From an uncultured Acidobacteriota bacterium (GTDB taxonomy: Bacteria > Acidobacteriota > Terriglobia > Terriglobales > Acidobacteriaceae): a DNA stretch of 64,000 bases. The number at the start of each line of letters is the position of its first letter. Positions within the stretch are counted from its first letter, which is position 1. Shown here piece by piece: positions 16,746-35,430 of the stretch. The notes below the pieces were generated by a model that was not told where the DNA came from, made no database searches, and saw only the letters and a program-made list of their open reading frames with translations. A program made the translations under genes and the position numbers. The stretch spans positions 66,750 through 130,749 of the forward strand of contig CAWGLF010000017.1 in assembly GCA_963823295.1 (NCBI GenBank). Reading direction: 5' to 3'.

Positions 16746-16863
16746 ATACAAGCCGACTATCCTTTTGGGGAAACGGATTGCTCAACCTAGTCGAAGAGGG
16801 TTTATGTAATTTGAAACTCGGGTTCGGCTAGCGTGAATAGGTAGCTTATACAGGAGGACTGCA

Positions 16864-17793: not shown

Positions 17794-17930
17794 TCGACAA
17801 GCTATAAACGCAAGTTGCTCATGCGGCGGATTCATGAGGCTGAATCTGCGCGGATATTTGAGCCATTGTTTGATGGGACGACTTACGATGTATCATTGTC
17901 GCCGGTGAATCTGTCGAGCGGGGAGGCGCT

Positions 17931-18695
17931 GTGCGTTTGCGAGTGCTTGCAGATAGAAATTTGTTGGCGACAGCTGCGGCAGCGCAAGCCGCGGTGGCGA
18001 TCCAGCATGCGATCAGAAAGCATGGCAAGGCCCGCATTATCGGCGCAAGCGCGGCCTCGCAGATCGAGTTCCTGGAGAGATTAACCGATACTCCTGGGAT
18101 CGATTGGAAGCGGGTCGAGCTGTTCCATCTGGACGAATACATCGGCCTGCCGATGAGCCACCCCGCGAGCTTCTGCAAGTTTCTTCAGGATCGTCTGATC
18201 GCAAAAACAGGAATCGTCAATTTTCATCTGCTCGACGGCGAAAAAGATCCCGCGGAAGTAATTCGCCGCACAAATGAGGCCATTCGCGAGGCACCCATTG
18301 ATGTGGCGTTTGTCGGGATTGGAGAAAACGGTCACCTGGCTTTCAATGATCCGCCAGCAGATTTCGAAACTGAGGAGCCGTATATCGAGGTGAACCTGGA
18401 CCAGGCTTGCCGGCGGCAGCAGGTCGGGGAAGGCTGGTTCCCAGATCTGGAAGCAGTTCCCAAGCGGGCCATCTCCATGTCGGTGAGGCAAGTTCTTAAG
18501 GCGAAGGAAATCCTAGCGGTAGTGCCCGGCCCCAAAAAGGCGCAAGCGGTTCTGGCCTGCGTCGAAGGATCCGTCAGCCCGCTGACGCCCGCGTCTATCC
18601 TGCAGACACATCCAAACGCCACGATTTATCTGGATTTGGAATCTGCTGCGCTGCTAAGTCCCGAAACCATCTCCAGGTTGGCGACATCGGCGTGA
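17931..18695 (+). CDS. nagB: Glucosamine-6-phosphate deaminase / 6-phosphogluconolactonase family protein
   Basis: GTG start preceded by GGGAGG. Motifs: [43 protein letters not shown] (GxGxxGHxAFNxP motif of NagB-type deaminases). Confidence 0.75.
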
Positions 18696-19032
18696 GGGCT
18701 TCCGTGGTTAGAGATTCTATCCAGAATTTACGCCGGATTCGGAACTCCTACAGAGCCTCTGGTCCCCGTGCCGCGATGAAAGACAGCGCTCCAGCTTCGC
18801 GATCGTCTTAATAATGCAATCTGATCGCGCTTTCTCTACAGGATTTGCTAATCCGGAATATCACAGGAACGCGTACCCACTCCAGCCAGCTTCCGCCACA
18901 CCCTATTGTTTCAACGCGACGCGATATTCAATCGTTTGACAACTGGCAATATGTCGTCTACCGTGTTGCATAACTTTGGAAGCTCGAATAAAAAGTTCAT
19001 TTTCTACAAATTTGGCGGGGAGGCGGCGATCC

Positions 19033-22000
19033 ATGAAGCTTTTCATAAAGTCTTTCTTAATTCTCGGTGTGTGTGCCATCCTTGCGTTCACGTCAAGTAG
19101 AGCCAGGGCAGACATCACGGGCTCGATATCCGGGGTTGTTACCGATCCAAGCGGCGCCGTGATTCCCGGTGTCACTGTAGTAGCGACGGCTGTGTCGACG
19201 AACGTAAAGCACACCACCGATTACGGACGGGAAAGGCTTTTACGCTTTCCCTGCTCTAAACGTTGACCACTACAATGTCACCGTCAGTCAACCTGGATTC
19301 AGGGATTTTCTGGAGAGTGGAGTCGTGATCAACGCCAACTCTGCAGTTCGAATCGACGTAAAGCTGCAAATCGGCGCGGTCAAGAACACCGTGTCGGTGA
19401 AAAGCGATCAGTTGCAGGTGGAAACCCAGAGCACGCAAATGGGCGAAGTGATCGAAGGAAGCAAGATAACCTCTGTCCCGCTCAATGGCCGCTCCTACAT
19501 TGATCTGCTGGCGCTTCAACCCGGTGTTTCTCCGTATAGCGACGTTGCTACTACGAGCGGCTCCGGTGTTTCGGGCGTAGACGGCGGTTCGCAGAGCATG
19601 GGCCTGCAATCCGTGAACGGCGGTCAACCGGAAGGCAACGGCTACATGGTAAACGGAGCCGATGCGGAAGAAGGCGTTCACAATGGGGCGGCGTTTATTC
19701 CAAATCTCGATTCCATCGCACAGTTCCGTATCATCACCAACAACTTCAACGCGGAATACGGAAACTTCAGCGGCGGCCAGATCAATGTCGTGACCAAAGC
19801 GGGAACAAATCAGTTCCACGGCGATCTATTCGACTTTTTGCGGAACACCGATCTGGATGCCAAAAATTACTTTGCGCCGACTCGCGGCGTTTTCATTCAA
19901 AATCAGTTTGGTGGCACGATCGGCGGTCCAATTAAGAGAGATAAGGTTTTCTTTTTCGGGGACTATCAGGGAACAAAGCAAATTATCGGTTCCACACAGT
20001 CCTTTCCTGTACCTTCCATAGCCGACCGCTCGGGAAATCTGTCGGATCAGGCAGCGGCACTCGAAAGCAGCGATCCTGCGAATAACGGCCTCGGGGTTCA
20101 AGGAGCATACTGGGCATCCGTGCTGTCCCGAGAGCTGGGTTATACCGTGACCAACGGAGAGCCATACTATTCGCCAGGGGTGCACGAGCAACGCTACCTG
20201 CGTTTTTCCGAATGCCATCGTTCCCGCCAGCGCAATCTCTCCGGTCGCGCGGAACATGCTGAAATATATTCCTACGCCCAATGCCGTGCAAAGCGGGCAA
20301 CCATTTTTTCAGACGTCGGCCTTCAATCAGACACTGACGGATAACAAGGGCGGAATCCGCGTGGATACAAACACACGCTTTGGAGCTCTGTTCGGCTACT
20401 ATTTTGCGGATAAGTACTCGGAAGTCAATCCCTACTTTGCGGTGAATATCCCCGGTTTCGACGCCGACCTTAGCGGGCTTACCCAAATGGGAAACTTTGG
20501 TCTGACGACAACCATCAACAATTCCACGGTGAATGATGTTCGCTTTGTCTATCTCCGAGACGTAAACCTGCAAGGGGTTCCAAAGGGTGGATTGGGCGTC
20601 ACACTTTCTTCTTTAGGCTTCAATACTCCCTGGGGACCAACCGGTGGAATTGGCGCGGTCGATCCCGCGTTGGAGGGGGTGCCGAATGTGGACTTCAATA
20701 ATTTCAGCTTTGGCGTTCCGCCAGACACACTGCGTCAATTTAACAACACCGTGCAGGTGATCGACAACGTCACGAAGATTTTCGGGACGCATACCATACA
20801 ATTCGGCGGAGATTTCCACTACGACCAGATCAACGAGCGCAATACCTACGGCCAAAATGGGCAATTCGGATTCGGCGGCCAGGAGACCGGTTACGATTTT
20901 GCGGATTACCTGATTGGAGCGCCAAATTACTTTATTCAGGCCAGCTTCCAGGTCCTCGATTCCCGCAGCAAATATTACGGCTTTTACGCGCAGGATAGCT
21001 GGCGCGCCACGTCAACTGTAACGATAAATTACGGCCTGCGATGGGAAGTCAGCACGCCATGGTATGACACGCAGAATAAGCTGGAAACACTGATTCAAGG
21101 CGAACAATCCAAGGTCTTCCCCGGGGCACCTACCGGACTTGTCCTGCCAGGTGACGCCGGTGTGCCGCGAACCTTGTCGCCGACCAGGTACACAAACTTT
21201 GCTCCACGATTCGGAATTGCATATTCTCCGGATATTGCCGACGGTTGGCTGGGTAAACTTCTGGGCGGCGCTGGAAAGACCAGTATTCGCGCCGGATATG
21301 GAATCTTCTACACATCCATCGTCGATGCCACGGGCTTTGTAGAGGTTGGGGACGCGCCATATGGCCTGTTCTATTCCAGCCCCGGACCTCCTCTGCTCGC
21401 ATCGCCCTATGTAACTCGGCAGACAGGAGTGGTCCAGCCGAATGCTTTCCCATTTGTATTTCCGCCAACCAATGTATCTCCCACGAACCCGGACACGACC
21501 TTCAACTGGTCTCAGGTCGAACCGATATCCGGTTCTGATTACTTTTCTCCAACCAATGTGTTGCCCTATACGCAGCAGTTTGAGTTATCGCTCCAGCGGC
21601 AGCTTGGAACAGCAACTGTAGCTAGTGTGAGCTATGTAGGCGCAGTGGGCCGGCACAATCTCACATTTTTAGAAGCCAATCCAGGAGATCCATCGCTCTG
21701 CTTGTACTTAAGCAATCCAGCAAACCTCGCTCCTGTGAGCCAGGGGAATCCTTGTGGTCCGGGCGGGGAACAAAATCAATACGTAGAGGCCAACGGCACA
21801 GTTGTGAATAGCACGCGTACCAGATTCGGAGCGAATTTCGGCGGAGATTCCTTTATGTCCTCATCTGCCAGCTCCAGCTACAACTCGCTTCAGGTAAGCC
21901 TGCAACATACCGAGAAATATGCGAATTTTCTGATCGGCTACACATGGTCGAAGTCTTTGGACAATGGCTCGGGAGTTTTCGATCCGACCGACGTCTTCAA

Positions 22001-22588
22001 TCCTAGTGCGAGCCGCGCGTTATCCACCTTCGACGTTCCGCAGAATCTTGTCATCAGCTATACAGTGCAATTGCCCTTCAACAACTTCATAGGAAAGGGC
22101 GATGTGGCAAAGCGGCTGACGGCTGGATGGGCCCTTTCCGGCATCACGAGCTTTGTGTCGGGCGAGCCGGTTCAAATTTCAGAAAACGACGATTTTTCTT
22201 TGATCGGCGCCAACTCGAGCTTCGATCAAGCCCAACTACGCGAACAATGGAAGCCGATTATTTGTGAACCGCAATCCACGTTCACAGCAACCGTATTTCA
22301 ACCCAAACTATTTTACCTCGGAGAACCTGGGCCAGGTTGGCGATATTATGCGCCGATTTTTTGTGGGTCCCGGCATCAATAACTATGACATGGCATTGTT
22401 GAAAAATACGGAACTATTCGGCGATAAGCAACTTCAATTCCGTGCAGAAGCATTCAACGTGTTCAACCATGCGCAATTCAACAACCCGTCCGGGAAATTT
22501 CAACAACGGCGGTGCCGGTGGTTTTGGATATGTGACATCCGCACGAGACCCACGCATCATGCAAATTGCGTTGAAGTTGTTGTTCTAG
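19033..22588 (+). pseudogene. TonB-dependent receptor with CarboxypepD_reg N-domain, four frame disruptions
   Basis: - Start: MKLFIKSFLILGVCAILAFTSSRARA-DITGSISGVVTDPSGAVIPGVTVVA.
- The protein is spread over ORFs 18976..19266, 19325..20344, 20256..22382 and 22264..22725, plus an unlisted terminal frame ending at TAG 22586..22588.
- That terminal frame gives the canonical C-terminus NFNNGGAGGFGYVTSARDPRIMQIALKLLF.
- Junctions: ~19210..19222, GGGG 20177..20180, ~22225..22232, and AAATTT 22495..22500. Confidence 0.85.
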
Positions 22589-22691
22589 GAGAATTGAATT
22601 CGAACGGTACACCGAGATGCCGGCTCCTGCAAATCGAATGGAAAGGCATTTCGGTGGTAGCGGGAAGGGATCAGGGGAGAGTTTGCTGCGA

Positions 22692-23559
22692 ATGCTGTGC
22701 CGGTGGCGAATCATCGTCAGCTTAGTTGGGACCTTAGGGGTGCTTTCCGCTGCCTCGTTGCATGCGCTACAAGCCGTTGACGCAGGCCATCCCACAAATG
22801 TTTCCAGGAGCATCCCAGGCCTCTGCTCTCTTTCGCACAAATTGTGGTGTCTGCCATGGAGTCGATGGCCGCGGTGGTGAACGCGCGCCGGATATTGCCA
22901 CGGCTTCTGAAGTGCAGCGACTTTCGGATAGCGACCTGATCGGAATTGTCGAGAATGGAATCTCCGGCGCCGGCATGCCGGCCTTCGGGTCGTTAGGCCA
23001 AACGAAGGTAAAGACAATTGTCGATTACCTGCGGGTTCTGCAAGGAAGAGGAACAGAGACGGCCGTAAAGGTTCCTGGAGATTCACGGGCCGGAGAATCG
23101 CTTTTCTTTGGAAAAGCGAAATGTTCAACCTGCCATATGGTGAACGGCCGCGGCGGCTTTATTGCGAGTGACCTGTCGTTGTATGGATCGCACGAGACGG
23201 CAGCCAGAATTCGCGGTGTGATTACCAATCCCGAAAAAAAACTGCCGCCGCGATCAAAAAGCACCACGGTTATTACTCGTCAAGGCGAGACATTTACCGG
23301 AATGGTGAAAAACATTGATAATTTCTCCATTGCACTACAAACGCCGGATGGAGCATTCCACTTCTTTAAAAAGGCTGATCTCAAACAAATTGATTTGTAT
23401 TCTCATTCACTGATGCCGGCCGATTACGGTGTGATCTTAGATAGCCGTGAACTCGACGATCTGGTGAATTACCTGCTCGACGTAGGGATTGAAGATGCAA
23501 GCCGCGCGCCGAAAGAGCCTCCCAGGCGTTATCGCAATCATGAAGATGGCTGGAATTAG
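22692..23559 (+). pseudogene. Dihaem c-type cytochrome; signal peptide separated from mature part by a frameshift
   Basis: Two CxxCH sites (NCGVCHG, KCSTCHM) lie in ORF 22762..23559. The only plausible export signal (MLCRWRIIVSLVGTLGVLSAASLHA) lies in frame 22617..22880, immediately upstream. c-type cytochromes must be exported, so one indel between 22767 and 22820 is inferred. Confidence 0.65.
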
Positions 23560-23596: not shown

Positions 23597-24895
23597 ATGA
23601 TGAGTGAAAGCAGAGCAATGGAAAACTTCAAAATGAAACGTAGAACTTTTATCAGATGGGCCGCTGCTTTTCCGCTGATTGCACAAGTTGGCATTCAGCA
23701 GGCGCTTGGAACAGGCTGGGCGGAGGTCGCAAAAGATTCCACCGACAATATATATACGCGGATTGGCGTAAAGCCGGTGATTAATGGACGTGGAACATGG
23801 ACATACTTAAGCGCCACGCTGGAGTTGCCTGAAGTAAAGGCGGCGCAAGAGGCGGCGGCTCGGCATTACGTGAATATATTTGATCTCCAGCATGCGGTTG
23901 GAAAACGATTGGCCGCATTGACCGGCGCGGAATCCGGCATGATTACCTCAGGAGCCGCAGGTGCAATGGCATCCGCAACAGCAGGCTGCATCGCTGGAAC
24001 AGACCCGGACAAGATTTGGCAACTACCGGATACTACCGGCTTAAAGCATGAAGTCGTCATGGTAGGTGGTCGAAGCCCATTTGATAGCGCCATTCGCCTG
24101 GCTGGCGGGAAACTTGTGATTGCGGAGTCGTCCGAGCAGCTTCCAAATGCGATCAACAGCAACACGGCGATGATCTATACGGGTTCAGAGGTTGACGAAT
24201 TAGCAAAGGAGATTGCTATCGCTAAAAGCCATCAGGTGCCGATTTTTATGGATGCAGCCGACGGGATTCCCCCCATAGAAAAGCTTAAGCTATTTGCCAA
24301 AATGGGGTGCGATTTGTACACCGTGAGCGGAGGCAAGGGATTGTGCGGTCCCCAGTCAAGTGGGGTTTTGCTTGGACGCAAAGATCTTATAGAAGCCGCT
24401 CTGGCGAACACGAATCCATGGGAAGGCGCGGTATGCCGTCCGATGAAAGTTGGTAAAGAAGAAATCATGGGATGTCTGGCGGCTGTAGAAGCGTGGTTCC
24501 ATATGGACCTGAATGCGTTGAATAAAGACTGGAACGAACGCGTCGAACGCATCGCAAAAATAGTAGGCACGGTTCCGGGAGTTCAAACCAAGATCTATAT
24601 ACCCAATGAGAATCATTATCCGACGCTGAGTGTCTCTTGGGACCAGAATGCCTGGGGCTACAGTACGGCAGATTGCGCGAACCAGCTCCTTGACGGCACA
24701 CCGAGTATCGCGGTTTTGACCGACGACAATCCGAGCGATGTTTTGGGCCGCAGGCCTCATAAGAAAGCTAAATCTCACGACCCTTCGCACAATACCCTGC
24801 AGATAGTTTCAATGACGTTGAAACCGAAGGAGGAGATCATCGTCGGTAGAAGATTGCGTCAGCTTTTGATGGCTGCCAGACCAAAGAATGCATAG
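23597..24895 (+). CDS. SelA-like (DgaE-like) PLP-dependent enzyme 1 with twin-arginine leader
   Basis: MKRRTFIRWAAAFPLIAQ leader. Core: INGRGTWTYLSATLELPEV, TGAESGMITSGAAGAMASATAGCIAG, VSGGKGLCGPQSSGVLLGRKDLI (PLP-lysine motif of the SelA fold family), RPMKVGKEEIMG. Confidence 0.7.
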   Translation: MMSESRAMENFKMKRRTFIRWAAAFPLIAQVGIQQALGTGWAEVAKDSTDNIYTRIGVKPVINGRGTWTYLSATLELPEVKAAQEAAARHYVNIFDLQHAVGKRLAALTGAESGMITSGAAGAMASATAGCIAGTDPDKIWQLPDTTGLKHEVVMVGGRSPFDSAIRLAGGKLVIAESSEQLPNAINSNTAMIYTGSEVDELAKEIAIAKSHQVPIFMDAADGIPPIEKLKLFAKMGCDLYTVSGGKGLCGPQSSGVLLGRKDLIEAALANTNPWEGAVCRPMKVGKEEIMGCLAAVEAWFHMDLNALNKDWNERVERIAKIVGTVPGVQTKIYIPNENHYPTLSVSWDQNAWGYSTADCANQLLDGTPSIAVLTDDNPSDVLGRRPHKKAKSHDPSHNTLQIVSMTLKPKEEIIVGRRLRQLLMAARPKNA

Positions 24896-24951
24896 GTAGG
24901 GGCATCGCATTCAGTAGCGGGATTGATCTGCGCAAATAAGAGGCATCAAGA

Positions 24952-26329
24952 ATGAACTTACGGTCCTTCACGCTTGTCCTGGCGCTCGGAATTGCGGCGC
25001 GTGCGATGGGCGCCCGATCCTCGATGCCCGCAGCTCCTTCCCCATGTCATATTCAAGCGACAACTTTCGACGGATGGCAAGCTGAAGAAGTTACGAATGA
25101 CTGGCTGCGCTTGACATTTGTCCCTCAACTGGGTGGCAGGTTAATGCAAGTGACATTTAACGGTCACCCATACCTATTCGTTAACCCAGAGTACAGAGGC
25201 AAGTATATTTCTCCTGATGCGGCGGCGGGGCGCTGGATTAACTATGGCGGCGATAAAATCTGGCCCTTGCCCGAGGGAAACGAGGATGAGCAGCATTGGA
25301 CAGGAGCCTCAACTCCGCTGGATGACGGCCTTTACAAATTTAAGATCCTCTCGCAGAACAAACGATGTGCTGTGAGTCTGGAAGGTCCTCCTGATCCCGC
25401 CGACAGGGCTTCAATATAACCGCGTGATTAGTATCGGAAATGATTCGCCGGAAATTTCCTTTCATGCCATCATGAAAAACTTCACCGGCCATACGATCGT
25501 CTGGTCCGTGCAGTCTGTGTCACAATACGACCTGTCAAATCCAAAGGATGCAGGCCAGTACAACCATGATTTCTGGGCGTTTTCGCCTCTAAATCCCCAC
25601 TCCTCTTATCTGGATGGATATCACATCCGCGATGGTCTGGCGAACGATCCTTCATTCAGCATAAAAGGAGGGCTATTCCGCCTGAATTGGCGATACCTGG
25701 AGAGCGAAGTCTGGCTAGATTCCACCGCAGGCTGGATCGCATTGATTGACGGCATGAGTGATTATGCAATGGTCGAAAAGACTAAATACATCGAGAACGC
25801 ACCATATCCAGGAAAAGCGTCAGTCATTTTTTATAAGAATGGGCCTACAGTACGGCTCGACCCAAATGGAATTCCATATCTTACGTCAACCCACCCGGAA
25901 CAAACGCCGTACTACATGGAAGCGGAGCTCAATAGTCCGATGGAGGTGTTGGCGCCGGGTGAGACATACGCCATGGACACGTCGTGGTTTCCGTCTCGTA
26001 TGGGACGAGATCTTTCTACAGTAACGGATGCAGGTATGGTCGGTAAGCCTTTGAGTGTCTCCAGGAACGATGGAAAGCTAGTTATAGACGGCAGCTTTGG
26101 AGTTTTTTTCTCTGGCAAATTAAAGGCACATTTATATGACAACGGTGGCGCGGAGCGAAGCCAGATTACTCTGCAAGCGGTCAGCCCGCAAGATCCAGTT
26201 GAGCTTCATCAGGCCATCGCGGCGCCCACGGGAATAGCCCGAGTATCTCTTCATCTGATCGACGATAACAGTGTGGATCGTGGTTCTCTCGGAGAAGTAT
26301 TCGTTACCGGAGCCGAGGGAGGACAATAG
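24952..26329 (+). pseudogene. DUF4380-like (mutarotase-like beta-sandwich) exported protein, one frameshift
   Basis: Signal peptide plus LRLTFVPQLGGRLMQVTFNGHPYLFVNPE...WINYGGDKIWPLPEG lie in ORF 24952..25419. This continues as TGLQYNRVISIGNDSPEISFHAIMKN... in ORF 25424..26329 (open from ~25382). The junction is at the CCC/GCCG run 25396..25403. Confidence 0.5.
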
Positions 26330-26333
26330 TCGC

Positions 26334-27986
26334 ATGATCGCGAAGCTGCGAGGAATCTGGATGGCGGTTTGCGCCTATGTAGTCGTTATCTGCGCAGCGT
26401 TCGTTGTCTGTGCAGGCGGCCAGAGTAGCGGCAAATCGGCTCTAGGAATCGTAGATGTGCAGCCGGCTCAGCTACTTTCTCGTGGGATTTATGAAAACTG
26501 GCCTTCCTATAATGGCGACTACACGGGGAGGCGTTACAGCAGCTTAATGCAAATAACTCCACAAAATGTCCATCAGCTTCGTGCGCAGTGGATATTTCAT
26601 AGCAAGAACGCCGGCACGTTTGAGGCAACCCCGCTCGTAGTGAATGGCATAATGTATATCACTGCGTCAAACGATGCATACGCTCTCAATGCTGTCGACG
26701 GACGCACGCTCTGGCACTACTCGCGACCTATATCCAGCGGTCTCATCGATGACGCCTCACAACATACGAGCCGGGGCGTTGCTCTATTGGGAACAAGGCT
26801 GTACATGGAAACGGATAATGCCCATTTACTTTGCCTGGATGCGCGATCTGGAAACCTGCTCTGGGACGTTCCTTATGCTGCCTGGAACAAGAATTATGGG
26901 GCGACAAGCGTTCCTCTGATTGTTAAGGACAAGGTGCTCGTTGGAACTTCTGGAGGTGATGACGGGGTACGTGGCTTTTTAGCAGCTTATGATTCTATGA
27001 CGGGAAAATTGGCATGGCGCTGCTGGACAATTCCGGGGCCAGGAGAGTTTGGCTCCTCAAGCTGGCCGGGAGATGCTTATCTGCACGGAGGAGGGACAGC
27101 ATGGATGCCAGGGACCTATGACCCGCAACTTAACATGCTGTACTGGGGGACTGGCAATGCCGCGCCGGATTATGATGGGAGCGTTCGCCCTGGCGATGAT
27201 CTTTATACGGCGAGTCTACTGGCCATCAACCCGGATACGGGAAAGATAAGGTGGTACTTCCAATTCACGCCGCATGATGTATATGACTACGATGGCGTTG
27301 AAACTCCTGTTCTGATCGATGGCATCTATGATGGGAAACCTAGAAAGCTTCTTATAGAGGCAAATCGGAATGGCTTCATTTATGTACTCGATCGTACGAA
27401 TGGGAAATTTTTATCGGCTACACGGTTTGCGGAAAGAGTAAATTGGGCTAAGGGTATCGACTCTCACGGAAGGCCAATATATACGAACGTTCAGCCAAGT
27501 TCAGATGGAGCGCTCATTTGCCCAGGTAACGTTGGAGCTAGCAACTGGTATTCGCCGTCATATAGCGAGTTCACGCATCTTTTTTATTTTCTATATCTCG
27601 ATGACTGTACGGTGAACTATAAGAAACAAGAGATATTCGTCGCCGGGAAGGAATACTACGCGACGGGCGCTCGACATGATCCGAACGGGAAGGGGAAGAA
27701 GACTCTTCTTGCATTCGATCCGAGGACGAATCGTTTTGCATGGCGCTATCCACAGAATGGAACTGCTGATTCCTGGGGTGGGGTAATGACAACAGCCACA
27801 GGATTGCTCTTTTTTGCCGACGATGCAGAATCCTTTGAGGCCGTAGATGCTAAGAGCGGAGAACCTCTATGGCATTTTAATACTGGGCAGACTTTGCATG
27901 CATCTCCGATGAGTTATTCAGTGGACGGCAAACAATACGTAGCAATTGCTTCAGGTAACGATTTGCTCAGTTTTGCACTGCCCTGA
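26334..27986 (+). CDS. PQQ-dependent dehydrogenase, methanol/ethanol family (signal-anchored)
   Basis: ATG 26334 (MIAKLRGIWMAVCAYVVVICAAFVV). Motifs: YNGDYTGRRYSSL, ATPLVVNGIMYI, GTSGGDDGVRGFLAAYD, GGGTAWMPGTYDPQLNMLYWGTGNAAPDYDGSVRPGDDLYTASLLAINPDTGKIRWYFQFTPHDVYDYDG, ASNWYSPSY. Eight-blade propeller pattern. Confidence 0.85.
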   Translation: MIAKLRGIWMAVCAYVVVICAAFVVCAGGQSSGKSALGIVDVQPAQLLSRGIYENWPSYNGDYTGRRYSSLMQITPQNVHQLRAQWIFHSKNAGTFEATPLVVNGIMYITASNDAYALNAVDGRTLWHYSRPISSGLIDDASQHTSRGVALLGTRLYMETDNAHLLCLDARSGNLLWDVPYAAWNKNYGATSVPLIVKDKVLVGTSGGDDGVRGFLAAYDSMTGKLAWRCWTIPGPGEFGSSSWPGDAYLHGGGTAWMPGTYDPQLNMLYWGTGNAAPDYDGSVRPGDDLYTASLLAINPDTGKIRWYFQFTPHDVYDYDGVETPVLIDGIYDGKPRKLLIEANRNGFIYVLDRTNGKFLSATRFAERVNWAKGIDSHGRPIYTNVQPSSDGALICPGNVGASNWYSPSYSEFTHLFYFLYLDDCTVNYKKQEIFVAGKEYYATGARHDPNGKGKKTLLAFDPRTNRFAWRYPQNGTADSWGGVMTTATGLLFFADDAESFEAVDAKSGEPLWHFNTGQTLHASPMSYSVDGKQYVAIASGNDLLSFALP

Positions 27987-28105
27987 TGATTATATTTTCG
28001 GAGAGCTTTATGGGATGCAGGAGCAGTTTGGGGCGTCAAGGTTGCAGGGTATTGCGGGCTTTATCGACCGATTGTTCCTTCCATGTTCAAAAAGGGAGTT
28101 TGACC

Positions 28106-29404
28106 GTGGCTGGCTGTGAAGCTGACAAAAATGTAAATGACCGGCGATCTTTTATTAAGTTGCTGGCCGCCGCGCCTTTGTTCGCCACCATTGGTTCTCG
28201 TGGTGTTGCGAGCACGGTGGTTGCCGCGGCTGGAAAATCTTCTTCCGCTGATGTTTATACCCGTCTTGGAGTGCGGCCATTTATCAATGCACGCGGAACG
28301 TGGACTTACCTGAGCGGCTCGCTGGAACTACCCGAGGTAAAGCGCGCGGTAGAGAATGCGTCTCAACATTTCGTCGATATGTTTGAACTGCAACGCGGAG
28401 TTGGGAGGCGGCTTGCTGAGCTTTCCGGGGCCGAATCTGGGATGGTGACCTCTGGCTCGGCTGGCGCGATGGCAGTCGCGACCGCTGCCTGCATAGCCGG
28501 CTCGGATCCCAAAAATATCTGGCAGTTACCGGATACCACCGGGTTGAAAAACGAAGTTGTTATGCTGGGTGGCCGGATTGCGTTCGACAGCGCGATACGG
28601 CTGGCCGGAGGTAAATTGGTGCTCGCCCACGGAGTGGAGGATTTACATCCCGCCATTACTTCGCAAACTGCGATGGTCTATACAACATGGCGGGATGATC
28701 GTCTCCCAAAGGCGCTGGCGATCACGCACGCGGCAGGAGTTCCGCTGCTATTGGATGATGCAGCCGGGATTCCGCCATTTGACAATCTTACGCGCTATGC
28801 CAAAATGGGCGTCGACCTTTATTGCTTCAGCGGTGGGAAGGGTCTGCGCGGTCCGCAATGTTCCGGAATCCTGTTAGGCCGAAAAGATTTGATCGATGCA
28901 GCCCTTGCGAACAATAATCCATGGGAAGGCTCCGTGTGCCGGCCCATGAAAGTGGGCAAAGAAGAGATCATAGGAATGCTGGCAGCGGTCGAGTATTGGT
29001 CGCGCGCGGATCTCGACGCTCTGAATAGGGAGTGGAGGAGCCGGGTCGAGCGCATTGCCAAGCTAGTTCAAACGGTGCCAGGAGTTACAACCTCCATAAC
29101 GATACCGAAAGAAGGAAATAGCTATCCGACCTTGACGGTGAGTTGGGATGAAAAACGCTTTGGTTTGACAGTATCTCAATGCGACCAGCAGCTGCGGGCG
29201 GGCGAACCCCGCATTGAGGTACTAACCAGCACGAACCCGAGCCTGGTACCGGCTGTCCACGAAGGCGATGATCCAAAGAAAAAACATGAAGCCCGCCCGA
29301 ATCAGTTGCAAATTGTTTCGATGACTTTGCGATCAGGTGAAGACCTCACGGTTGGAAACCGTTTACGCCAGATCTTGGCCGCTGCGCGTAGGCAAACCGC
29401 GTGA
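28106..29404 (+). CDS. SelA-like PLP-dependent enzyme 2 with twin-arginine leader
   Basis: The ORF is open from 27986 (ATG overlapping the PQQ stop as TGATG). GTG 28106 is preceded by AAGGGAG (28092..28098) and yields a short leader (M)AGCEADKNVNDRRSFIKLLAAAPLFA. Core: INARGTWTYLSGSLELPEV, SGAESGMVTSGSAGAMAVATAACIAG, FSGGKGLRGPQCSGILLGRKDLI, RPMKVGKEEIIG. Start choice is uncertain. Confidence 0.7.
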   Translation: MAGCEADKNVNDRRSFIKLLAAAPLFATIGSRGVASTVVAAAGKSSSADVYTRLGVRPFINARGTWTYLSGSLELPEVKRAVENASQHFVDMFELQRGVGRRLAELSGAESGMVTSGSAGAMAVATAACIAGSDPKNIWQLPDTTGLKNEVVMLGGRIAFDSAIRLAGGKLVLAHGVEDLHPAITSQTAMVYTTWRDDRLPKALAITHAAGVPLLLDDAAGIPPFDNLTRYAKMGVDLYCFSGGKGLRGPQCSGILLGRKDLIDAALANNNPWEGSVCRPMKVGKEEIIGMLAAVEYWSRADLDALNREWRSRVERIAKLVQTVPGVTTSITIPKEGNSYPTLTVSWDEKRFGLTVSQCDQQLRAGEPRIEVLTSTNPSLVPAVHEGDDPKKKHEARPNQLQIVSMTLRSGEDLTVGNRLRQILAAARRQTA

Positions 29405-29440
29405 GCAGGTGCGCACAAATATGGAAAGGTATCCATAAGC

Positions 29441-30664
29441 ATGAGAAACATCCTTATCGGATTGATACTAGCCTGCCAGCCGGTGTTCCTGGGTGCTCAA
29501 ATCCAGCCGGTGATTTCGAAGAATGGACCTCGGCTGCCCGGCGCCAATACGCCCGGAATTTTTGCCGGCGGTTATCTTTACGTCGCGGGTGAAGGAGATC
29601 AAGCTCCGGACGGAACTGTACCCACAACCTTTGATGCTCAGGCCGACCAAGCTTTCAAGAATGTCAAAGCTGTGGTCGAAAGCGCCGGTCTGACGATGGA
29701 TCATGTCGTATATACGCAGATTTACCTCGATAACATAAAGAACTTCGACGCGATGAATCGAGCGTACGCCAGATACTTTCCCAAAGCGCCTCCTGCCCGG
29801 GCCTGTTTAGGGGTCGCGGCACTCCCTGGCACTTCCATTATGGTCGAGGCAGTCGCGGTTCGTGACCTGAGTCAAAAGAAGGTAGTCGTGGTGCCGGGTT
29901 ACAAATTGAACGATCCGATCTCTGCGGGAATCCTGACACGGGACCGTCTATTTGTCTCCGCCATGCGAGGCCGCGATCCGGTAACTGGCGAGGTTCCGTC
30001 GGATCCTGCGGCTCAAGTCAATCTAGCGCTGGACGGAATGAAGGCCGTTCTCCAGGCTGCAGGCCTTGATATGCGCTATATGGTTTTCGTGAATCCCTAT
30101 CTTACAAAGGCAATTCCGAACAGAACGATGAATAAGTTGTATGCGACGCGTTTCGAATTTGGCAATACACCCGCGCGGGCAACCATCGAAGTGACCAGCC
30201 TTCCCGGCGGAGCACAGATCGAATACACGGGGGTAGCGGTCCGGAATTTGTCCGATCGGCATGCGATCCGCCCACTAAATATGGCTCCTAGTCCGACGGC
30301 AAGCCCCTGTGTATTTGCGGGAGATACACTTTATTGCTCCGCGAAGGATGGCTTTATTCCCGGACCGAACGAAGGCATATATGTTGCTGGTGTGGACCAG
30401 CAGCTCCGCCAGACTATGCGCAATCTACTGGATGATTTGCAAGAAGCTGGACTGGACTTCAGTTCCGTTGTCAGCACTACGGTCTATCTGGATAATATTT
30501 CGGACGCTCCCACGGTAAATAAACTTTATGCAACATACTTTAAAGGAAATCCGCCGGCACGCACGACCGTCCAGCAGATAGCTCCGGTAGAGAGAAAGCC
30601 AAACAAAGATGGTCAGTATCCGGGTCTTGAACAAATTTCTTTAATAGCAATGCGCCAGAGGTAA
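29441..30664 (+). CDS. Exported protein with three tandem RidA/YjgF/L-PSP domains
   Basis: 407 aa. Signal peptide MRNILIGLILACQPVFLGA. Three ~126-aa repeats each carry the RidA pattern: G..L(Y/F)(V/C)(A/S)...(F/V).(A/Q)....(A/L)L.N(V/L/M)K..(V/L)..AG(L)....(V/M)V....(Y)L, ending PPARACLGVAALPG (R120), TPARATIEVTSLPG (R246) and PPARTTVQQIAP (R374). Confidence 0.8.
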   Translation: MRNILIGLILACQPVFLGAQIQPVISKNGPRLPGANTPGIFAGGYLYVAGEGDQAPDGTVPTTFDAQADQAFKNVKAVVESAGLTMDHVVYTQIYLDNIKNFDAMNRAYARYFPKAPPARACLGVAALPGTSIMVEAVAVRDLSQKKVVVVPGYKLNDPISAGILTRDRLFVSAMRGRDPVTGEVPSDPAAQVNLALDGMKAVLQAAGLDMRYMVFVNPYLTKAIPNRTMNKLYATRFEFGNTPARATIEVTSLPGGAQIEYTGVAVRNLSDRHAIRPLNMAPSPTASPCVFAGDTLYCSAKDGFIPGPNEGIYVAGVDQQLRQTMRNLLDDLQEAGLDFSSVVSTTVYLDNISDAPTVNKLYATYFKGNPPARTTVQQIAPVERKPNKDGQYPGLEQISLIAMRQR

Positions 30665-30671
30665 CAACTTC

Positions 30672-31569
30672 ATGGATCATACTAAGCTGCGCGTCTTCCT
30701 GTTTATAGCTCTGCTCGCCAGGTATCTTCTGCTCGCCTCTATTGCATGCTGAGCAACGCAAGATCGATCCGACCTTTCTGTATCGAAATACCTCAGTAGC
30801 CAGGGCGAAAAAGTCCGATATCACAACGGCGACCTGCCATTACAAACCGCTGTTCGGCCAGGGAGATCCAGATACAGCTGTAGTTGTCGGTGTTGCTCGT
30901 TACGGTGAAGCAGTGGTCGATTCCAACGGAGCCTGCGCTACAGTTCAATATCCTGATGAAGATCAGGTATACGTGGTGCTCGACGGCAGCGGATCCGTGA
31001 AGTATGGAAATGAGATGGTATCTCTTAAGAAGGAAGACTATCTCTATTTCCCCGCAACAATACCCCATACTTTAAGCAATAAATCCGGCAGATCGCTGAC
31101 GGTGGTCGTTATGGGCTTTCACACGCAAGGATTTGAAAAAGCCAGATTGCCAGAGCATCCTCTGAAGGCGAACATCGAAGATGTACCGACGCGTACTGTA
31201 GAGGGGCATCCATCTTCCGCTCGCTTTCGCTTGCTGATGGGAGATGCCGATAGTAAACGTGACCGCATTGCGGCTGGCCGCGTTCTGACCAGCCTTTTTC
31301 TGATGGAAATAGCGCCGAACGGCACTAATTTTCCCCATCATCACGAACGCGAAGAGGAGATTTACCTGGTGTTAAACGGCCACGGCGTAATGGTGGCGGG
31401 TGGAGGAATGAACGGAATCGCGGGACGTCACCCTGCCAAAGCCGGGGACGCGTACTTCTTCCGGCTCAACTGCACCGTTGGGTATTACAGTGCTCCCGGC
31501 GTTAAATCACGCATTCTCGCCGTCCGCTCGTGGTATCCAGGCATGCAGCAAAAAGGGGCAAAACACTGA
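30672..31569 (+). pseudogene. Bicupin protein; lipoprotein/signal leader separated by a frameshift
   Basis: ORF 30742..31569 has two cupin barrels. The second has the metal motif FPHHHEREEEIYLVLNGHG. Immediately upstream in another frame, ATG 30672 encodes MDHTKLRVFLFIALLARYLLLASIAC-stop (30750..30752). Deleting one base near 30748..30752 fuses ...SIAC to EQRKIDPTFLYRN. Confidence 0.6.
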
Positions 31570-31711
31570 TCGGGATGAGAACGTCAGAAGTATACGAGTA
31601 GTAGCACTTCGGGTAAAGGAAATCTAATCGTTTATACGCGTTATTTCGATAGAACTGGTGACCTTAGACATTGTTCGTTAACTCAATATAGATAGCTGAT
31701 ACGAGGCGCAA

Positions 31712-32968
31712 ATGAATCGTCGCGGGTTTGTAGGTGGATTGGCTGCACTGTCAGGAGCGATTTTTGGATCTGGGACATCGTTGGCGTCGATGAGGCCGAG
31801 TGAGCGAGGTTCATGGAACGGACAGATACGCGGATTAGGGGAAACAGGAGATGTATATAAGGAGTTAGGGCTAAATACAGTTATCAATGGCCAGGGAACC
31901 ATGACTTACCTGGGCGGATCGCTGATGCGGCCGGAGGCAGAGGAAGTAATGAAGCTTGCGAGTCTCAGCTTCGTAAACATTATGGATCTGGAAGCGGCTG
32001 TCGGAAAAAGAATCTCGAAAATGCTGAACCTGCCTCAAGGGTACGGGGTGATTGTCACGTCAGGTGCAGCATCAGCGATCCAAAACGGTTATTCGGGAAT
32101 ACTGACGGGAAGCAACGAGAAATACATCAAACAGATTCCGGACCTTACTGGGCTGAAGTCTGAGGTCATCATTCAAAAAGCACATCGCAGTCCGTGGGAC
32201 CATCAAATCCGTGCAACTGGAGTAAAGATGGTTGAGGTAGAGACAGTTTCTGACGTGCATAACGCAATAAGCGACCGAACTGCTGCCATGCATTTTCTGA
32301 ACCTCGCCGATCCCGATGGACAGATTAAGCGCGAGGATTGGCTGAAGCTAGCGCATGCGGAAAATCTGCCGGCATTTATCGATGCTGCCGCCGATACTCC
32401 GCCCAAGTCTCATCTTTGGGATTATGCCAACATGGGTTACGATCTGATCTCATTCAGCGGAGGAAAGGCAATGCGGGGCCCGCAATGTACTGGATTGCTG
32501 ATAGGGCGTCAGGAGATGGTGAACAATGCGTTATTAAATATGAGTCCGAATGAAGATACTTTGGGCCGCATTGCTAAAGTTGGTAAGGAAGAGATTATAG
32601 GCTTGGCTAAGACCATTGAGTTATATATGGCTGAAGACGAAGACGCTCTCGAAGCCAGCCAATGGAAAATGCTAGACACAATCGCAAATCGTGTCAAACA
32701 AATTCCGGGAATCACAATCACCAGAAATGTGCCGGAAATTGCAAATAACTTTCCGGCTATTCAGATTCATCTGGACCCCACCGTAGTACCCGTTAAATCT
32801 CACGAGGTTCTTCAAAAATTGGCGGCCATGAAGCCGGCGATCATTCTAGGTGGCGGGGAGGGCAATGAGAGTAATGTGATCGGGATAACCGCGATCGTAT
32901 TGCAACCCGGACAGGATAAGATCATCGCCGACGCATTATCGAAGGTCCTGCGCGGACGGGCTGCGTGA
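31712..32968 (+). CDS. SelA-like PLP-dependent enzyme 3 with twin-arginine leader
   Basis: MNRRGFVGGLAALSGAIFGSG leader. Core: INGQGTMTYLGGSLMRPEA, VIVTSGAASAIQNGYSGILTG, FSGGKAMRGPQCTGLLIGRQEMV, RIAKVGKEEIIG. More diverged than paralogues 1 and 2. Confidence 0.7.
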   Translation: MNRRGFVGGLAALSGAIFGSGTSLASMRPSERGSWNGQIRGLGETGDVYKELGLNTVINGQGTMTYLGGSLMRPEAEEVMKLASLSFVNIMDLEAAVGKRISKMLNLPQGYGVIVTSGAASAIQNGYSGILTGSNEKYIKQIPDLTGLKSEVIIQKAHRSPWDHQIRATGVKMVEVETVSDVHNAISDRTAAMHFLNLADPDGQIKREDWLKLAHAENLPAFIDAAADTPPKSHLWDYANMGYDLISFSGGKAMRGPQCTGLLIGRQEMVNNALLNMSPNEDTLGRIAKVGKEEIIGLAKTIELYMAEDEDALEASQWKMLDTIANRVKQIPGITITRNVPEIANNFPAIQIHLDPTVVPVKSHEVLQKLAAMKPAIILGGGEGNESNVIGITAIVLQPGQDKIIADALSKVLRGRAA

Positions 32969-33033: not shown

Positions 33034-34023
33034 ATGAAAACCATGAAGAAGCTTTCGTTGCTCGTACTTATTATTTGTTCTTTGATTAGTATGTGCATTT
33101 GTGCGCCATTGCGGGGACAGACCGGCAAACGCCGGTTCGAGCTGGACGCGCTTTCTCCAGGGTTCTGGAAACTATTCGATAGGCAATCCAAACTCACCGT
33201 TGTGGCTTCCGGTTTCGGCTTTACCGAAGGGCCCGTTTGGGACAAGGCTGGATTCTTGTGGGTAAGTGACGAAACAGCGAACAAAATCTTCCAGGTAAAT
33301 CTGCGTACCGGACGGAAGCAGGTGATGATTGCCCTGGGAGATCCGGATGGCAATGCGTATGACCAGCAGCGGCGCCTTTTGGACTGTGCCAGCGTGCTGC
33401 GTGCCGTCATTCGGCTGTCTCCGGACGGAAAAAGCTATAAGACTGTGGCAGACAAATATCAGGGAAAGCGTTTCAACAGCCCAAATGACGTGGTGCTAGG
33501 GCCCGATGGCGCCATCTACTTCACTGATCCAACCCTCGATCTGGTTGCCGGCCAAAAACAGGAGATACCGTTTCAAGGAGTTTATCGGATATCAAAGAAC
33601 GGCCAAGTGCGACTGCTGAGCAAAGATCTGGCACAACCCAACGGACTCGCATTTTCCCCGGACGGGAAAAGATTTTATGTGGACGACTCACAAAAGTTGA
33701 ACATCCGTGTCTATGATTTCAACCCGGACGGAACGCTGGCGAACGGACGCATCTTTGGCACGGAGGCGGTGGGCGGACCGAAGGATGGTGTCCCGGACGG
33801 GATGAAGGTCGACAAAAAAGGAAATCTTTATGTCGTAGGCCCCAGAGGGATATGGGTCTGGAGTGCGCAAGGCCACCATCTTGGGACGATTGTCGTTCCA
33901 GAGCAACCTGCGAATCTGGCGTGGGGAGATGATGGTTACTCGACGCTTTATATAACTGCCGGGACATCGGTCTATAAAATTCATACAAAATCTCACGGGT
34001 TTGCACCTTATCCTATAAGATAG
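33034..34023 (+). CDS. SMP-30 / gluconolactonase / LRE-family lactonase with signal peptide
   Basis: MKTMKKLSLLVLIICSLISMCICA leader. Motifs: GFTEGPVWD, FNSPNDVVLGPDGAIYFTDP, QPNGLAFSPDGKRFYVDD, PDGMKVDKKGNLYV, PANLAWGD. Six-blade propeller lactonase motifs. Confidence 0.8.
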   Translation: MKTMKKLSLLVLIICSLISMCICAPLRGQTGKRRFELDALSPGFWKLFDRQSKLTVVASGFGFTEGPVWDKAGFLWVSDETANKIFQVNLRTGRKQVMIALGDPDGNAYDQQRRLLDCASVLRAVIRLSPDGKSYKTVADKYQGKRFNSPNDVVLGPDGAIYFTDPTLDLVAGQKQEIPFQGVYRISKNGQVRLLSKDLAQPNGLAFSPDGKRFYVDDSQKLNIRVYDFNPDGTLANGRIFGTEAVGGPKDGVPDGMKVDKKGNLYVVGPRGIWVWSAQGHHLGTIVVPEQPANLAWGDDGYSTLYITAGTSVYKIHTKSHGFAPYPIR

Positions 34024-34055: not shown

Positions 34056-34505
34056 ATGGCAACACGGCGAAATGTATTGAAGGGCGCTGCTTCCATTGTG
34101 GCAGCAGCCGGTCTTACCTCTTCCATGGGTGCAGAGACATCGAAGAAGAAAAAAGTCTATTATCCGGGTGGTAAAAAGCCGGAGAAGACCCCACTATTTT
34201 CAAGCATGATTTCCTACGGAAACTTGCTATTCATCTCTGGTGTGGGTGCGCATTTTCAGGGAGATATCACCTCTCATACGAAACATGTTTTGGACGAAAT
34301 CGAAAAGGAGCTGAAGAGCGCTGGTTCTTCGATGGATAAAGTTCTTAAATCCAATGTATATTTGAGCGATTTGAAGGATTACGCGGGCATGAATGCGGTT
34401 TTTCAGGGTCGTTTTGGAGATAGTCCCCCTGTTCGTACCACGATTGCGGCGGCCGGCCTTCCAGGTAACTCTCTCGTTGAGATTGATGTAATCGCATATA
34501 TTTAG
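34056..34505 (+). CDS. RidA-family protein with twin-arginine leader
   Basis: MATRRNVLKGAASIVAAAGLTS leader, then GNLLFISGVGAHF...HTKHVLDEIEKELKSAGSSMDKVLKSNVYLSDLKDYAGMNAVF...PPVRTTIAAAGLPGNSLVEIDVIA. Single RidA domain with conserved Arg. Confidence 0.8.
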   Translation: MATRRNVLKGAASIVAAAGLTSSMGAETSKKKKVYYPGGKKPEKTPLFSSMISYGNLLFISGVGAHFQGDITSHTKHVLDEIEKELKSAGSSMDKVLKSNVYLSDLKDYAGMNAVFQGRFGDSPPVRTTIAAAGLPGNSLVEIDVIAYI

Positions 34506-34605: not shown

Positions 34606-35430
34606 ATGAGGTTACTTTCGCGCGATACACGGCGGAGTTCAAGCTTTTTTTCGAAAGGAACGACAACCACATACTTACGCCTGAGTAAGGCGCTCGTAGC
34701 TGCCGTTGTTGTGCTTGTATTGTCGTTTGCACTGTTTCTGGTTCGGGCACAGTCGATATCTGAGGTAACAACTCCCAAGAACAACTCCGACGCAATTCTG
34801 GATGCTTTTCGCAAGGTAGAGGTCGCGTCCGTGTCGGATGCGATCGAGCAAGTCTCCGGAAGACGCATGTATATGTCTCATCACATGCATCCTTTATTTC
34901 CAGCTCATTTCGCAGGGTTTGCTGTGACTGTGCAACTCAAAAAAGAAGAAAATCACGATCCGAACGCACTGGACGGCATGCTCGCCGCCATCGATACAGG
35001 GAAAAGGGATTCTGTGTATGTCATGAAGGTTCAGGATGGCCAGGACATTGCAGGAATGGGGGGTCTAATGGGCACCGCCATGGCGGCACGGGATTACGCG
35101 GGAGCCGTAATCGACGGTGGCGTTCGCGATGTCGCCTATCTCCGCAAGATCGAGTTTCCTGTCTACGCGACTGGCATTGTTCCGTCGACCTCCGTTGGAC
35201 ATTACCGTTTCGCGGGTGCAAACATCCCGATCGTTTGCGATGGGGTTTCTGTAGACCCCGGCGATATTATCGTCGCAGATAGCGACGGGGTTGTTGTTGT
35301 ACCGCGAGCCCAGGCGGTGCAAGTGTTGACTGTCGCACAGCAGATGGACTTTAAAGAACACTCGATGTACCCATACATCACCAGGCTAAAATCTATAGAA
35401 CAAGCTGTGAAGCAATTTGGCCGCCTTTGA
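34606..35430 (+). CDS. RraA-family (class II aldolase / decarboxylase-like) protein with N-terminal signal-anchor
   Basis: Hydrophobic segment ALVAAVVVLVLSFALFLV. Core: DSVYVMKVQDGQDIAGMGGLMGTAMAARDYAGAVIDGGVRDVAYLRKIEFPVYATG...DPGDIIVADSDGVVVVP. Clear RraA/HMG-aldolase signature. Confidence 0.7.
   Translation: MRLLSRDTRRSSSFFSKGTTTTYLRLSKALVAAVVVLVLSFALFLVRAQSISEVTTPKNNSDAILDAFRKVEVASVSDAIEQVSGRRMYMSHHMHPLFPAHFAGFAVTVQLKKEENHDPNALDGMLAAIDTGKRDSVYVMKVQDGQDIAGMGGLMGTAMAARDYAGAVIDGGVRDVAYLRKIEFPVYATGIVPSTSVGHYRFAGANIPIVCDGVSVDPGDIIVADSDGVVVVPRAQAVQVLTVAQQMDFKEHSMYPYITRLKSIEQAVKQFGRL

Follow-up and report, generated by a model that had tools for sequence, protein, structure and literature searches.

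Three intact genes with twin-arginine leaders

The window analyzed here is a stretch of 64,000 nucleotides (nt) from an uncultured bacterium of the Acidobacteriaceae (Acidobacteriota; assembly GCA_963823295.1, contig CAWGLF010000017.1, positions 66,750 to 130,749). It carries three related genes, W1, W2 and W3, that encode putative pyridoxal 5'-phosphate (PLP) enzymes with predicted export leaders. An initial inspection of the letters, hereafter the sequence-only reading, had placed three paralogues at 23597, 28106 and 31712, and all three were recovered as intact open reading frames (ORFs) on the + strand. W1 (23597..24895), a fold-type I PLP enzyme resembling DgaE and Cap15, encodes 432 aa from its first ATG, W2 (28106..29404) encodes 432 aa from a GTG, and W3 (31712..32968) encodes 418 aa. 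The motifs quoted by the sequence-only reading were likewise all found (given in the order W1, W2, W3): an N-terminal VINGRGTWTYL, FINARGTWTYL or VINGQGTMTYL; VSGGKGLCGPQ, FSGGKGLRGPQ or FSGGKAMRGPQ in the lysine region; and MKVGKEEIMG, MKVGKEEIIG or AKVGKEEIIG. The PLP lysine is K247 in W1 (nt 24335-24337), K245 in W2 (nt 28838-28840) and K252 in W3 (nt 32465-32467). W1 and W2 share 61% identity, and W3 is 34% identical to W1.

Upstream of the first conserved motif, each protein carries the arginine pair (RR) that had been reported for it, within KRRTFIRW in W1, DRRSFIKLL in W2 and NRRGFVGGL in W3. Inspection of the start codons placed this pair inside all three proteins, and the true starts therefore do not lie downstream of it. 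Because orthologues begin with M-[KN]-R-R, W1 probably starts at ATG 23633 (MKRRTF...), which is still 5' of the RR pair. The W2 frame stays open in the 5' direction as far as 27986, where an ATG overlaps the stop codon of the preceding gene. This start was ruled out by the lengths of the homologues, as most of the 120 closest to W2 are 423-433 aa long, which fits a start at GTG 28106, and by the ribosome-binding site AAGGGAG found ahead of that GTG. In W3, the first start codon of the ORF yields M-N-R-R and has GAGG upstream.

We judged the leaders with the curated model of twin-arginine translocation (Tat) signals, TIGR01409, together with simple rules. KRRTFIR, DRRSFIK and NRRGFVG each precede an uncharged stretch of at least 13 residues. 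The W2 leader (28106..28213, +; RR at nt 28142-28147), ending in NDRRSFIKLLAAAPLFATIGSRGVAS, scored 17.9 bits, and the W3 leader (31712..31789, +), MNRRGFVGGLAALSGAIFGSGTSLAS, scored 17.0 bits, both narrowly above the cut-off of 16.7 bits. Leaders related to that of W3 were found in three other loci of the family (L014, L066 and L081). The W1 leader (23633..23710, +; RR at nt 23639-23644), MKRRTFIRWAAAFPLIAQVGIQQALG, comprises K-R-R-T-F-I-R, which is near the Tat consensus, a hydrophobic region and an A-L-G end of small residues. The Tat model thus narrowly accepts the leaders of W2 and W3, and returned no match for that of W1.

Comparison of the leader codons with those of orthologous loci gave 0.39-0.82 synonymous differences per synonymous site (pS) and a ratio of nonsynonymous to synonymous differences (pN/pS) of 0.10-0.38, with 0.17-0.38 for W1 and 0.10-0.22 for W2. 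With many synonymous and few replacement changes, the leader segment is therefore translated and under selection. Furthermore, the pattern RRSF[ILM]K[LF]xAAAPLFATI is almost invariant among the 120 closest W2 homologues (73-100% identity), the few exceptions being gene calls that begin at a downstream Met (MKLL...). Both RR columns were also invariant in an alignment of 31 of 31 homologues that share 33-42% identity with W2. A scan of one genome per species, which returned 80 loci, revealed an RR leader on 76 homologous ORFs and none on 7, most of which look cut by contig ends or frameshifts; 12 more fragments without the N-terminal motif could not be scored. In the AlphaFold model of W2 (mean predicted local distance difference test, pLDDT, of 87; predicted template modelling score, pTM, of 0.83), the first ~45 residues are modelled with low confidence, their pLDDT falling below 50 at positions 1-11 and 26-44, and the part from about residue 46 on with high confidence.

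These observations indicate that the leaders are real and conserved and probably of the Tat type, and export of the three enzymes is predicted from their sequences. If the proteins were cytoplasmic instead, the RR segment would be untranslated or would form an N-terminal extension with another role. The few automatic gene calls that begin at the downstream Met and the failure of the W1 leader to match the Tat model are in line with such a reading, which is nonetheless highly improbable in view of the purifying selection on the leader codons, the invariance of RR across phyla, the unstructured leader of the W2 model and the signal peptides of the neighbouring enzymes. A cytoplasmic location is, on these predictions, effectively excluded.

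The DgaE/Cap15 branch of the SelA superfamily

The kinship of the three predicted enzymes is far above chance, as each of them matched TIGR01437, the DgaE family, at ~1e-45. This was the best-matching NCBIfam family (154, 157 and 155 bits for W1, W2 and W3, respectively, vs a cut-off of 385), and the corresponding scores for the DgaE equivalog NF047797 were 139, 142 and 125 bits vs a cut-off of 600. Pfam returned weak Aminotran_5 and SelA matches. The Pfam SelA scores (PF03841) were 22.1, 23.4 and 40.1 bits vs a cut-off of 22.8, those of W1 and W2 covering the 45-residue lysine region only, and the SelA model TIGR00474 gave 21.5, 26.5 and 42.0 bits vs a cut-off of 267.9. When a profile of the family was searched against solved structures, DgaE (7lc0) was found at 3e-73, Cap15 (8t7j) at 6e-70 and SelA at ~1e-22. 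Similarly, the target-normalized template modelling (TM) scores of the W2 model were 0.86-0.87 to Cap15 8t7j, 0.84 to DgaE and mostly 0.5-0.65 to SelA. W1-W3 are therefore placed by these comparisons in the DgaE/Cap15 branch of the SelA superfamily, as predicted fold-type I PLP enzymes. DgaE/Cap15-like is therefore a closer description than the label "SelA-like" of the sequence-only reading.

Public databases name members of this family generically or wrongly as SelA, and the Joint Genome Institute (JGI) labels many homologues "seryl-tRNA(Sec) selenium transferase". We regard this label as a misannotation because the SelA scores are low and the tRNA-binding domain is absent. The three proteins share with SelA the superfamily and the SG(G/D)K...GPQ lysine motif. 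SelA differs in that it is cytoplasmic, acts on a tRNA and has a tRNA-binding domain at its N-terminus, and its match to W1-W3 is weak (E 1e-5 to 1e-11). The SelA N-terminal domain was not found in W1-W3, where a 26-45 aa RR leader, disordered in the W2 model, precedes the first conserved motif instead. The JGI names and the weak Pfam matches would favor genuine selenocysteine synthases. Against these speak TIGR00474 scores of 21-42 bits vs 267.9, TM scores mostly of 0.5-0.65, a signal peptide in place of the tRNA-binding domain, and three copies and an exported location that would make no sense for tRNA chemistry. SelA identity is thus ruled out by scores, fold and domain layout, and we consider it refuted.

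To compare active sites, we rebuilt the sequence of DgaE (7lc0) from its printed alignment and aligned it with W1-W3 and 28 diverse homologues. K213 of Salmonella DgaE falls in the same column as K247, K245 and K252. The SGGK lysine proposed by the sequence-only reading hence coincides with the Schiff-base lysine of DgaE and with that of Aquifex SelA (SGDK), and it was invariant in 113 of 113 family representatives. S210 of DgaE, which belongs to the S-G-x-K lysine motif, is kept in W1-W3. The equivalent of R226, a residue placed at the substrate alpha-carboxylate in a docking model of DgaE (PMC9529869), is also an arginine in all three, and is Arg in 30 and Lys in 7 of 41 exported representatives. 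The same docking model places R301, R332 and R346 at the 6-phosphate of the substrate (PMC9529869); these positions are replaced by T/L/M in W1, T/L/M in W2 and A/G/I in W3. Likewise, H162 and H163 are strictly conserved in DGL sequences, with H163 acting as the C-3 proton donor (PMC9529869), and these positions are occupied by V/D, D/D and A/D in W1, W2 and W3, respectively. The HH pair was found in none of the 41 exported representatives.

Because the phosphate arginines and the His pair are absent, W1-W3 are not orthologues of DgaE, a conclusion to which the family cut-offs also lead (~155 vs 385 bits, and 125-142 vs 600). A phosphorylated substrate is therefore unlikely for W1-W3, which would suit a compartment without kinases or ATP. 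What W1-W3 have in common with DgaE is the best-matching family, the fold, the PLP lysine, S210, Arg226 and the N-terminal INxxGxxT motif, and the chemistry that we propose for them is also that of DgaE, a beta-elimination of water and ammonia from a 2-amino-2-deoxy-aldonate. They differ from it by sharing only 27-29% identity and by their setting, as DgaE is cytoplasmic and linked to a phosphotransferase system, whereas W1-W3 bear Tat leaders and sit with exported RidA proteins. Cap15 is the closest solved fold and shares 29% identity. It differs from W1-W3 in being a cytoplasmic antibiotic-tailoring enzyme of Streptomyces, an oxygen- and PLP-dependent monooxygenase-decarboxylase of capuramycin biosynthesis. 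The substrate is a beta-hydroxy-alpha-amino acid with a sugar backbone both for DgaE (PMC9529869) and for Cap15 (PMC7497351).

RidA partners and a proposed periplasmic pathway

Two genes of the cluster encode RidA proteins with export signals. The first lies directly 3' of W2 (29441..30664, +) and encodes a fusion of three Ribonuc_L-PSP domains (PF01042, 2.8e-55) behind a general secretory (Sec)-type signal peptide, MRNILIGLILACQPVFLGAQ. The second (34056..34505, +) encodes a single-domain RidA (PF01042, 3e-22) with a Tat leader, MATRRNVLKGAASIVAAAGL, that scored 23.3 bits with TIGR01409. Each domain of the fusion has a P-A-R motif (PARA, PARA and PART) at the place of the catalytic arginine, as judged by motif and not by alignment. 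The single-domain protein keeps this arginine (PVRT, aa 125-128), aligned with that of the solved RidA structure PH0854. RidA proteins act as trimers. After passage through Sec, the three domains of the fusion could assemble within their one chain into a pseudo-trimer, and the single-domain RidA may need Tat to cross already assembled. The division between the two RidA types was also observed in other loci, as the triple-domain RidAs neighbouring other PLP genes have Sec signals and the single-domain ones RR leaders, Planctomycetota and Bacteroidota included. The importance of the catalytic arginine, Arg105 in TdcF of E. coli, has been described (PMC4433059).

We found a RidA gene within 10 kb of the PLP gene in 45 of 81 related loci, and within 400 bp in about 38 of them. 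These RidA-linked loci belong to Acidobacteriota, Planctomycetota, Verrucomicrobiota, Bacteroidota and Eisenbacteria, and in L001 the triple-RidA gene likewise follows the orthologue. Furthermore, an unbiased Pfam scan of the genes next to the PLP gene in the 40 most distant loci, 134 neighbours in all, returned RidA as the top family (12 of 134), followed by amidohydrolases (4), and then by soluble glucose dehydrogenase (sGDH)-type dehydrogenases, PIG-L deacetylases, RraA-like proteins and enolase-superfamily proteins (2 each). RidA hydrolyses the enamine and imine products of PLP-dependent eliminations (PMC4433059, PMC9529869), and its linkage is the strongest clue to the chemistry that W1-W3 would catalyse.

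The remaining genes between about 16.9 and 36.9 kb are all on the + strand, and nearly every enzyme of the cluster has an export signal. W1 is preceded by an outer-membrane beta-barrel receptor of the TonB-dependent type (18976..22725, +), broken over at least four reading frames, and by a dihaem c-type cytochrome (22762..23559, +) whose signal peptide seems to lie in another frame (22617-22880). Between W1 and W2 are found a mutarotase-like exported protein (DUF4380/TTE1925-like; 24952..26329, +) and a quinoprotein dehydrogenase with a beta-propeller of the pyrroloquinoline quinone (PQQ) type and an N-terminal signal or anchor (26271..27986, +). A frameshift near 25397 breaks the gene of the former into two ORFs, which fall in frames 1 and 2 by tblastn; relatives have one ORF of ~485 aa instead. 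The best model for the quinoprotein is TIGR04528, "acido-empty-quinoprotein group A" (544.8 bits vs a cut-off of 650), and it lies barely above the cut-off of TIGR03075, the model of the PQQ methanol/ethanol family (480.6 vs 480.05). The cytochrome c is the likely electron acceptor of this dehydrogenase. A bicupin gene (30742..31569, +) that recurs beside W1- and W2-type genes in relatives precedes W3. Downstream of W3 are a protein of the SMP-30/gluconolactonase family with a Sec signal peptide (33034..34023, +), an RraA-like homologue of class II pyruvate aldolases (LigK/PcmE-like) with an N-terminal hydrophobic signal (34606..35430, +) and a transporter of the major facilitator superfamily (MFS; 35490..36851, +), best matching the D-galactonate (sugar-acid) transporter family TIGR00893 at 203.8 bits, below the cut-off. 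A second RraA-like protein (16864..17793, +) bears the Sec signal peptide MRKIIMVALITCTALGASPGFSQ, and its N-terminus resembles that of an exported RraA-like protein of a Pedobacter locus (L080).

In 10-21 other loci, the mutarotase-like protein, quinoprotein, cytochrome c, SMP30, RraA-like and MFS genes again accompany the PLP enzyme. They fall there into three separable modules, which the window unites. The Pedobacter locus encodes, in order, an sGDH-type enzyme fused to cytochrome c, a PLP enzyme (Tat), more cytochromes c, a lactonase, a RidA (Tat), an amidohydrolase of a deacetylase family, an RraA-like protein and a transporter. Every enzyme of this locus has a signal peptide, and its dehydrogenase is non-orthologous to the quinoprotein of the window.

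Just upstream of the cluster, a homologue of NagB-like glucosamine-6-phosphate deaminases lacks a signal peptide (17931-18695; TIGR00502, 128.5 bits, below the cut-off) and provides a second hint of amino-sugar metabolism. On the opposite strand, a GH78 alpha-L-rhamnosidase extends over three ORFs (13596-16472, -). The broken receptor, the GH78 gene and the cytochrome frames look like long-read homopolymer errors rather than decay, and the PLP genes are intact. G+C content is 0.50-0.55 across 14000-38000 vs 0.56-0.61 in most of the flanking sequence, and the cluster may be a horizontally acquired island.

Taken together, these data suggest that W1-W3 are PLP ammonia-lyases that Tat would export to the periplasm, where they would use non-phosphorylated amino-aldonates. 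To this explanation, taken as a whole, we give about an even chance. Each enzyme would fold in the cytoplasm with its twin-arginine signal, bind PLP on the conserved lysine and be exported by Tat as a holoenzyme, as are PvdN and PtaA. In the periplasm, it would catalyse an alpha,beta-elimination (deamination) of a non-phosphorylated alpha-amino-beta-hydroxy acid. Its substrates would be 2-amino-2-deoxy-aldonates. These would arise locally, from imported amino sugars, through the action of the mutarotase-like protein, of the lactonase and of the quinoprotein dehydrogenase, which would oxidize the sugar together with cytochrome c. The exported RidAs would then hydrolyse the enamine or imine to a 2-keto-3-deoxy-aldonate and ammonium. 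The fate of the former would be either cleavage by the exported RraA-like aldolases or uptake through the MFS transporter of the galactonate type. The parts of this explanation differ in strength. That an exported PLP enzyme works with RidA is very probable. Ammonia-lyase chemistry is favored with reasonable but lesser assurance. An amino-aldonate substrate is put forward tentatively. It draws support from both characterized relatives, which use beta-hydroxy-alpha-amino acids with a sugar backbone, from the ong pathway of oxidized chitin (described below) and from the sugar-acid flavour of the neighbouring genes.

RidA linkage by itself would also be consistent with exported enzymes acting on D- or L-serine, threonine or cysteine, that is, with periplasmic dehydratases or desulfhydrases releasing 2-aminoacrylate or 2-aminocrotonate. 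Serine and threonine dehydratases generate the best-known substrates of RidA (PMC4433059, PMC9529869), the carboxylate-binding arginine is kept, and RidA is the sole consistent neighbour in distant phyla. However, the genes recur with a sugar dehydrogenase, a lactonase, a mutarotase-like protein, a sugar-acid-type MFS transporter, a 2-oxo-acid aldolase and deacetylases, and both characterized relatives act on sugar-backbone amino acids, making these small amino acids unlikely substrates.

The neighbouring genes also bear on whether the exported enzymes could carry out oxygen-dependent chemistry like that of Cap15, either an oxidative decarboxylation or a deamination to an amide or imine. A 2-oxo-acid aldolase and a sugar-acid importer suit a 2-keto-3-deoxy acid better than an amide, the sequence scores of DgaE equal or slightly exceed those of Cap15, and Cap15 is a specialized enzyme of antibiotic biosynthesis. 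We regard this chemistry as improbable, even though 8t7j is the closest solved fold and the second-best sequence match, the periplasm has oxygen and an imine product could still need RidA. Finally, exported aminotransferases could act on keto-sugars or keto-acids formed by the periplasmic dehydrogenase, as PtaA is a Tat-exported transaminase that works in the periplasm (PMC6206403) and the fold belongs to the aminotransferase class-V superfamily. Such enzymes would leave the RidA linkage unexplained, no amino donor or acceptor system is evident in the cluster, and the nearest characterized relatives are a lyase and an oxygenase and include no transaminase. We hold this to be very unlikely.

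Several observations weigh against the periplasmic ammonia-lyase explanation. The W1 leader is missed by TIGR01409, and about half of the 81 loci have no RidA gene within 10 kb. In distant phyla, RidA alone is conserved beside the PLP gene, and the sugar-oxidation context is well documented chiefly for Acidobacteriota and for a single locus of Pedobacter. Within the cluster, the cofactor and substrate of the quinoprotein are uncertain because of its match to the acido-empty-quinoprotein family, and the bicupin, which alone lacks an evident signal peptide, could be given no role. Cap15 shows that the same fold is capable of oxygen-dependent chemistry rather than elimination. Furthermore, the HH pair was also found in no leaderless representative. 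Its absence is therefore not specific to the exported clade and cannot alone explain a need for RidA, so that loss of the enamine-protonating His163 of DgaE as the reason for the pairing stays conjecture.

In its fullest version, the periplasmic ammonia-lyase explanation would comprise uptake through the outer membrane, C1 oxidation by the quinoprotein with transfer to cytochrome c, lactone hydrolysis, deacetylation where needed, deamination by the Tat-exported lyase, imine hydrolysis by periplasmic RidA and aldol cleavage by exported RraA-like proteins. Such a complete, ATP-independent breakdown of amino sugars in the periplasm would be widespread in soil Acidobacteriota and also occur in Bacteroidota, Planctomycetota and others, with the three paralogues serving different amino-aldonate epimers. 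We advance this version with more doubt than belief.

Precedents, distribution and paralogue types

The sequence-only reading had pointed to the periplasm as an unusual location for PLP chemistry. This remains so, but Tat-exported PLP enzymes have a precedent in PvdN and PtaA of fluorescent pseudomonads, for which PLP binding in the cytoplasm, Tat export in the folded state and activity in the periplasm were experimentally shown (PMC6206403). The biogenesis logic that we propose for W1-W3 is the same. PvdN and PtaA belong to other PLP families, function in siderophore tailoring and are found in pseudomonads only, unlike the W1-W3 family, which spans at least six phyla, and the search with the family profile, which returned 32 PDB chains at E <= 1e-5, included neither name.

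A second precedent is provided by the ong pathway of Pseudoalteromonas for oxidized chitin, which includes the deacetylase OngB, the PLP-dependent glucosaminate deaminase OngC and the essential RidA OngD (PMC9537276). Its conversion of N-acetyl-glucosaminate to glucosaminate and then to 2-keto-3-deoxygluconate and ammonia, with RidA (PMC9537276), resembles the route proposed here. The ong steps are cytoplasmic and OngC is of fold-type III, whereas W1-W3 are of fold-type I, and the PLP enzyme, RidA, aldolase and, in Pedobacter, the deacetylase carry export signals.

A literature search on exported SelA-like or DgaE-like enzymes, periplasmic RidA, periplasmic glucosaminate deamination, 8T7J and glucosaminate fitness found no description of this family, and neither a genomics paper on the Rid family nor the GapMind carbon paper mentions it. 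Neither the very large exported DgaE/Cap15 branch nor its link to exported RidA nor a deamination pathway located entirely in the periplasm thus appears to have been described so far. PLP-dependent catabolism is treated as cytoplasmic, and among PLP enzymes exported by Tat, PvdN and PtaA alone have been studied well. With the family described here, such exported chemistry would also serve the breakdown of nutrients in soil phyla that are abundant, and a natural set of cofactor-containing cargoes would be added to those of Tat. If the proposed pathway is true, the RidAs described here would be the first periplasmic ones, and the breakdown would liberate ammonium and small acids outside the cytoplasm. 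The pairing with exported RidA further suggests that enamine and imine control matters outside the cytoplasm too, a point addressed by no paper that we found. The pathway would also give a testable route of amino-sugar carbon and nitrogen turnover in Acidobacteria, from chitin, peptidoglycan or other amino-sugar polymers.

To estimate the size of the family, we searched 1.84 billion cluster representatives and obtained 6,301 matching clusters at E <= 0.001 and 1,374 clusters (50% identity) at E <= 1e-30; close relatives number about 8,000. Among the 118 full-length top representatives, 45 are longer at the N-terminus by 25 residues or more (export leaders on ~38%), about 40 of these 45 showing RR and a hydrophobic stretch, and the remaining 73 begin directly at the first conserved motif. 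The loci of the one-genome-per-species scan belong mostly to Acidobacteriota, and also to Planctomycetota (including Singulisphaera), Verrucomicrobiia, Bacteroidota (Pedobacter, Chitinophagaceae and Cyclobacteriaceae), Eisenbacteria, Poribacteria, Latescibacterota and a metagenome-assembled genome of Gemmatimonas.

In a neighbour-joining tree, leader-bearing sequences separated from leaderless ones. W1 and W2 were sisters, and W3 fell in a different, old leader-bearing subclade, which disfavors a recent local triplication. For each paralogue, there are other genomes that contain its best matches but lack the other two types, and these matches mostly neighbour a RidA gene. Of the two readings of the triplication that had been offered, three related substrates or a heteromer, distinct substrates are therefore favored over an obligate heteromer, because each paralogue type occurs separately elsewhere.

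We also observed an exported subclade whose members have an additional ~130-150 residues at the C-terminus, without a Pfam match, for a total of 540-570 aa (L080 9995-11665; P0138-P0140, P0159 and P0184). In L001, the locus of the 85%-identical orthologue, ZorA-like and EH_Signature genes of a Zorya-type defence system are located a few kb farther downstream (14207-21048) and are unrelated to the PLP genes.

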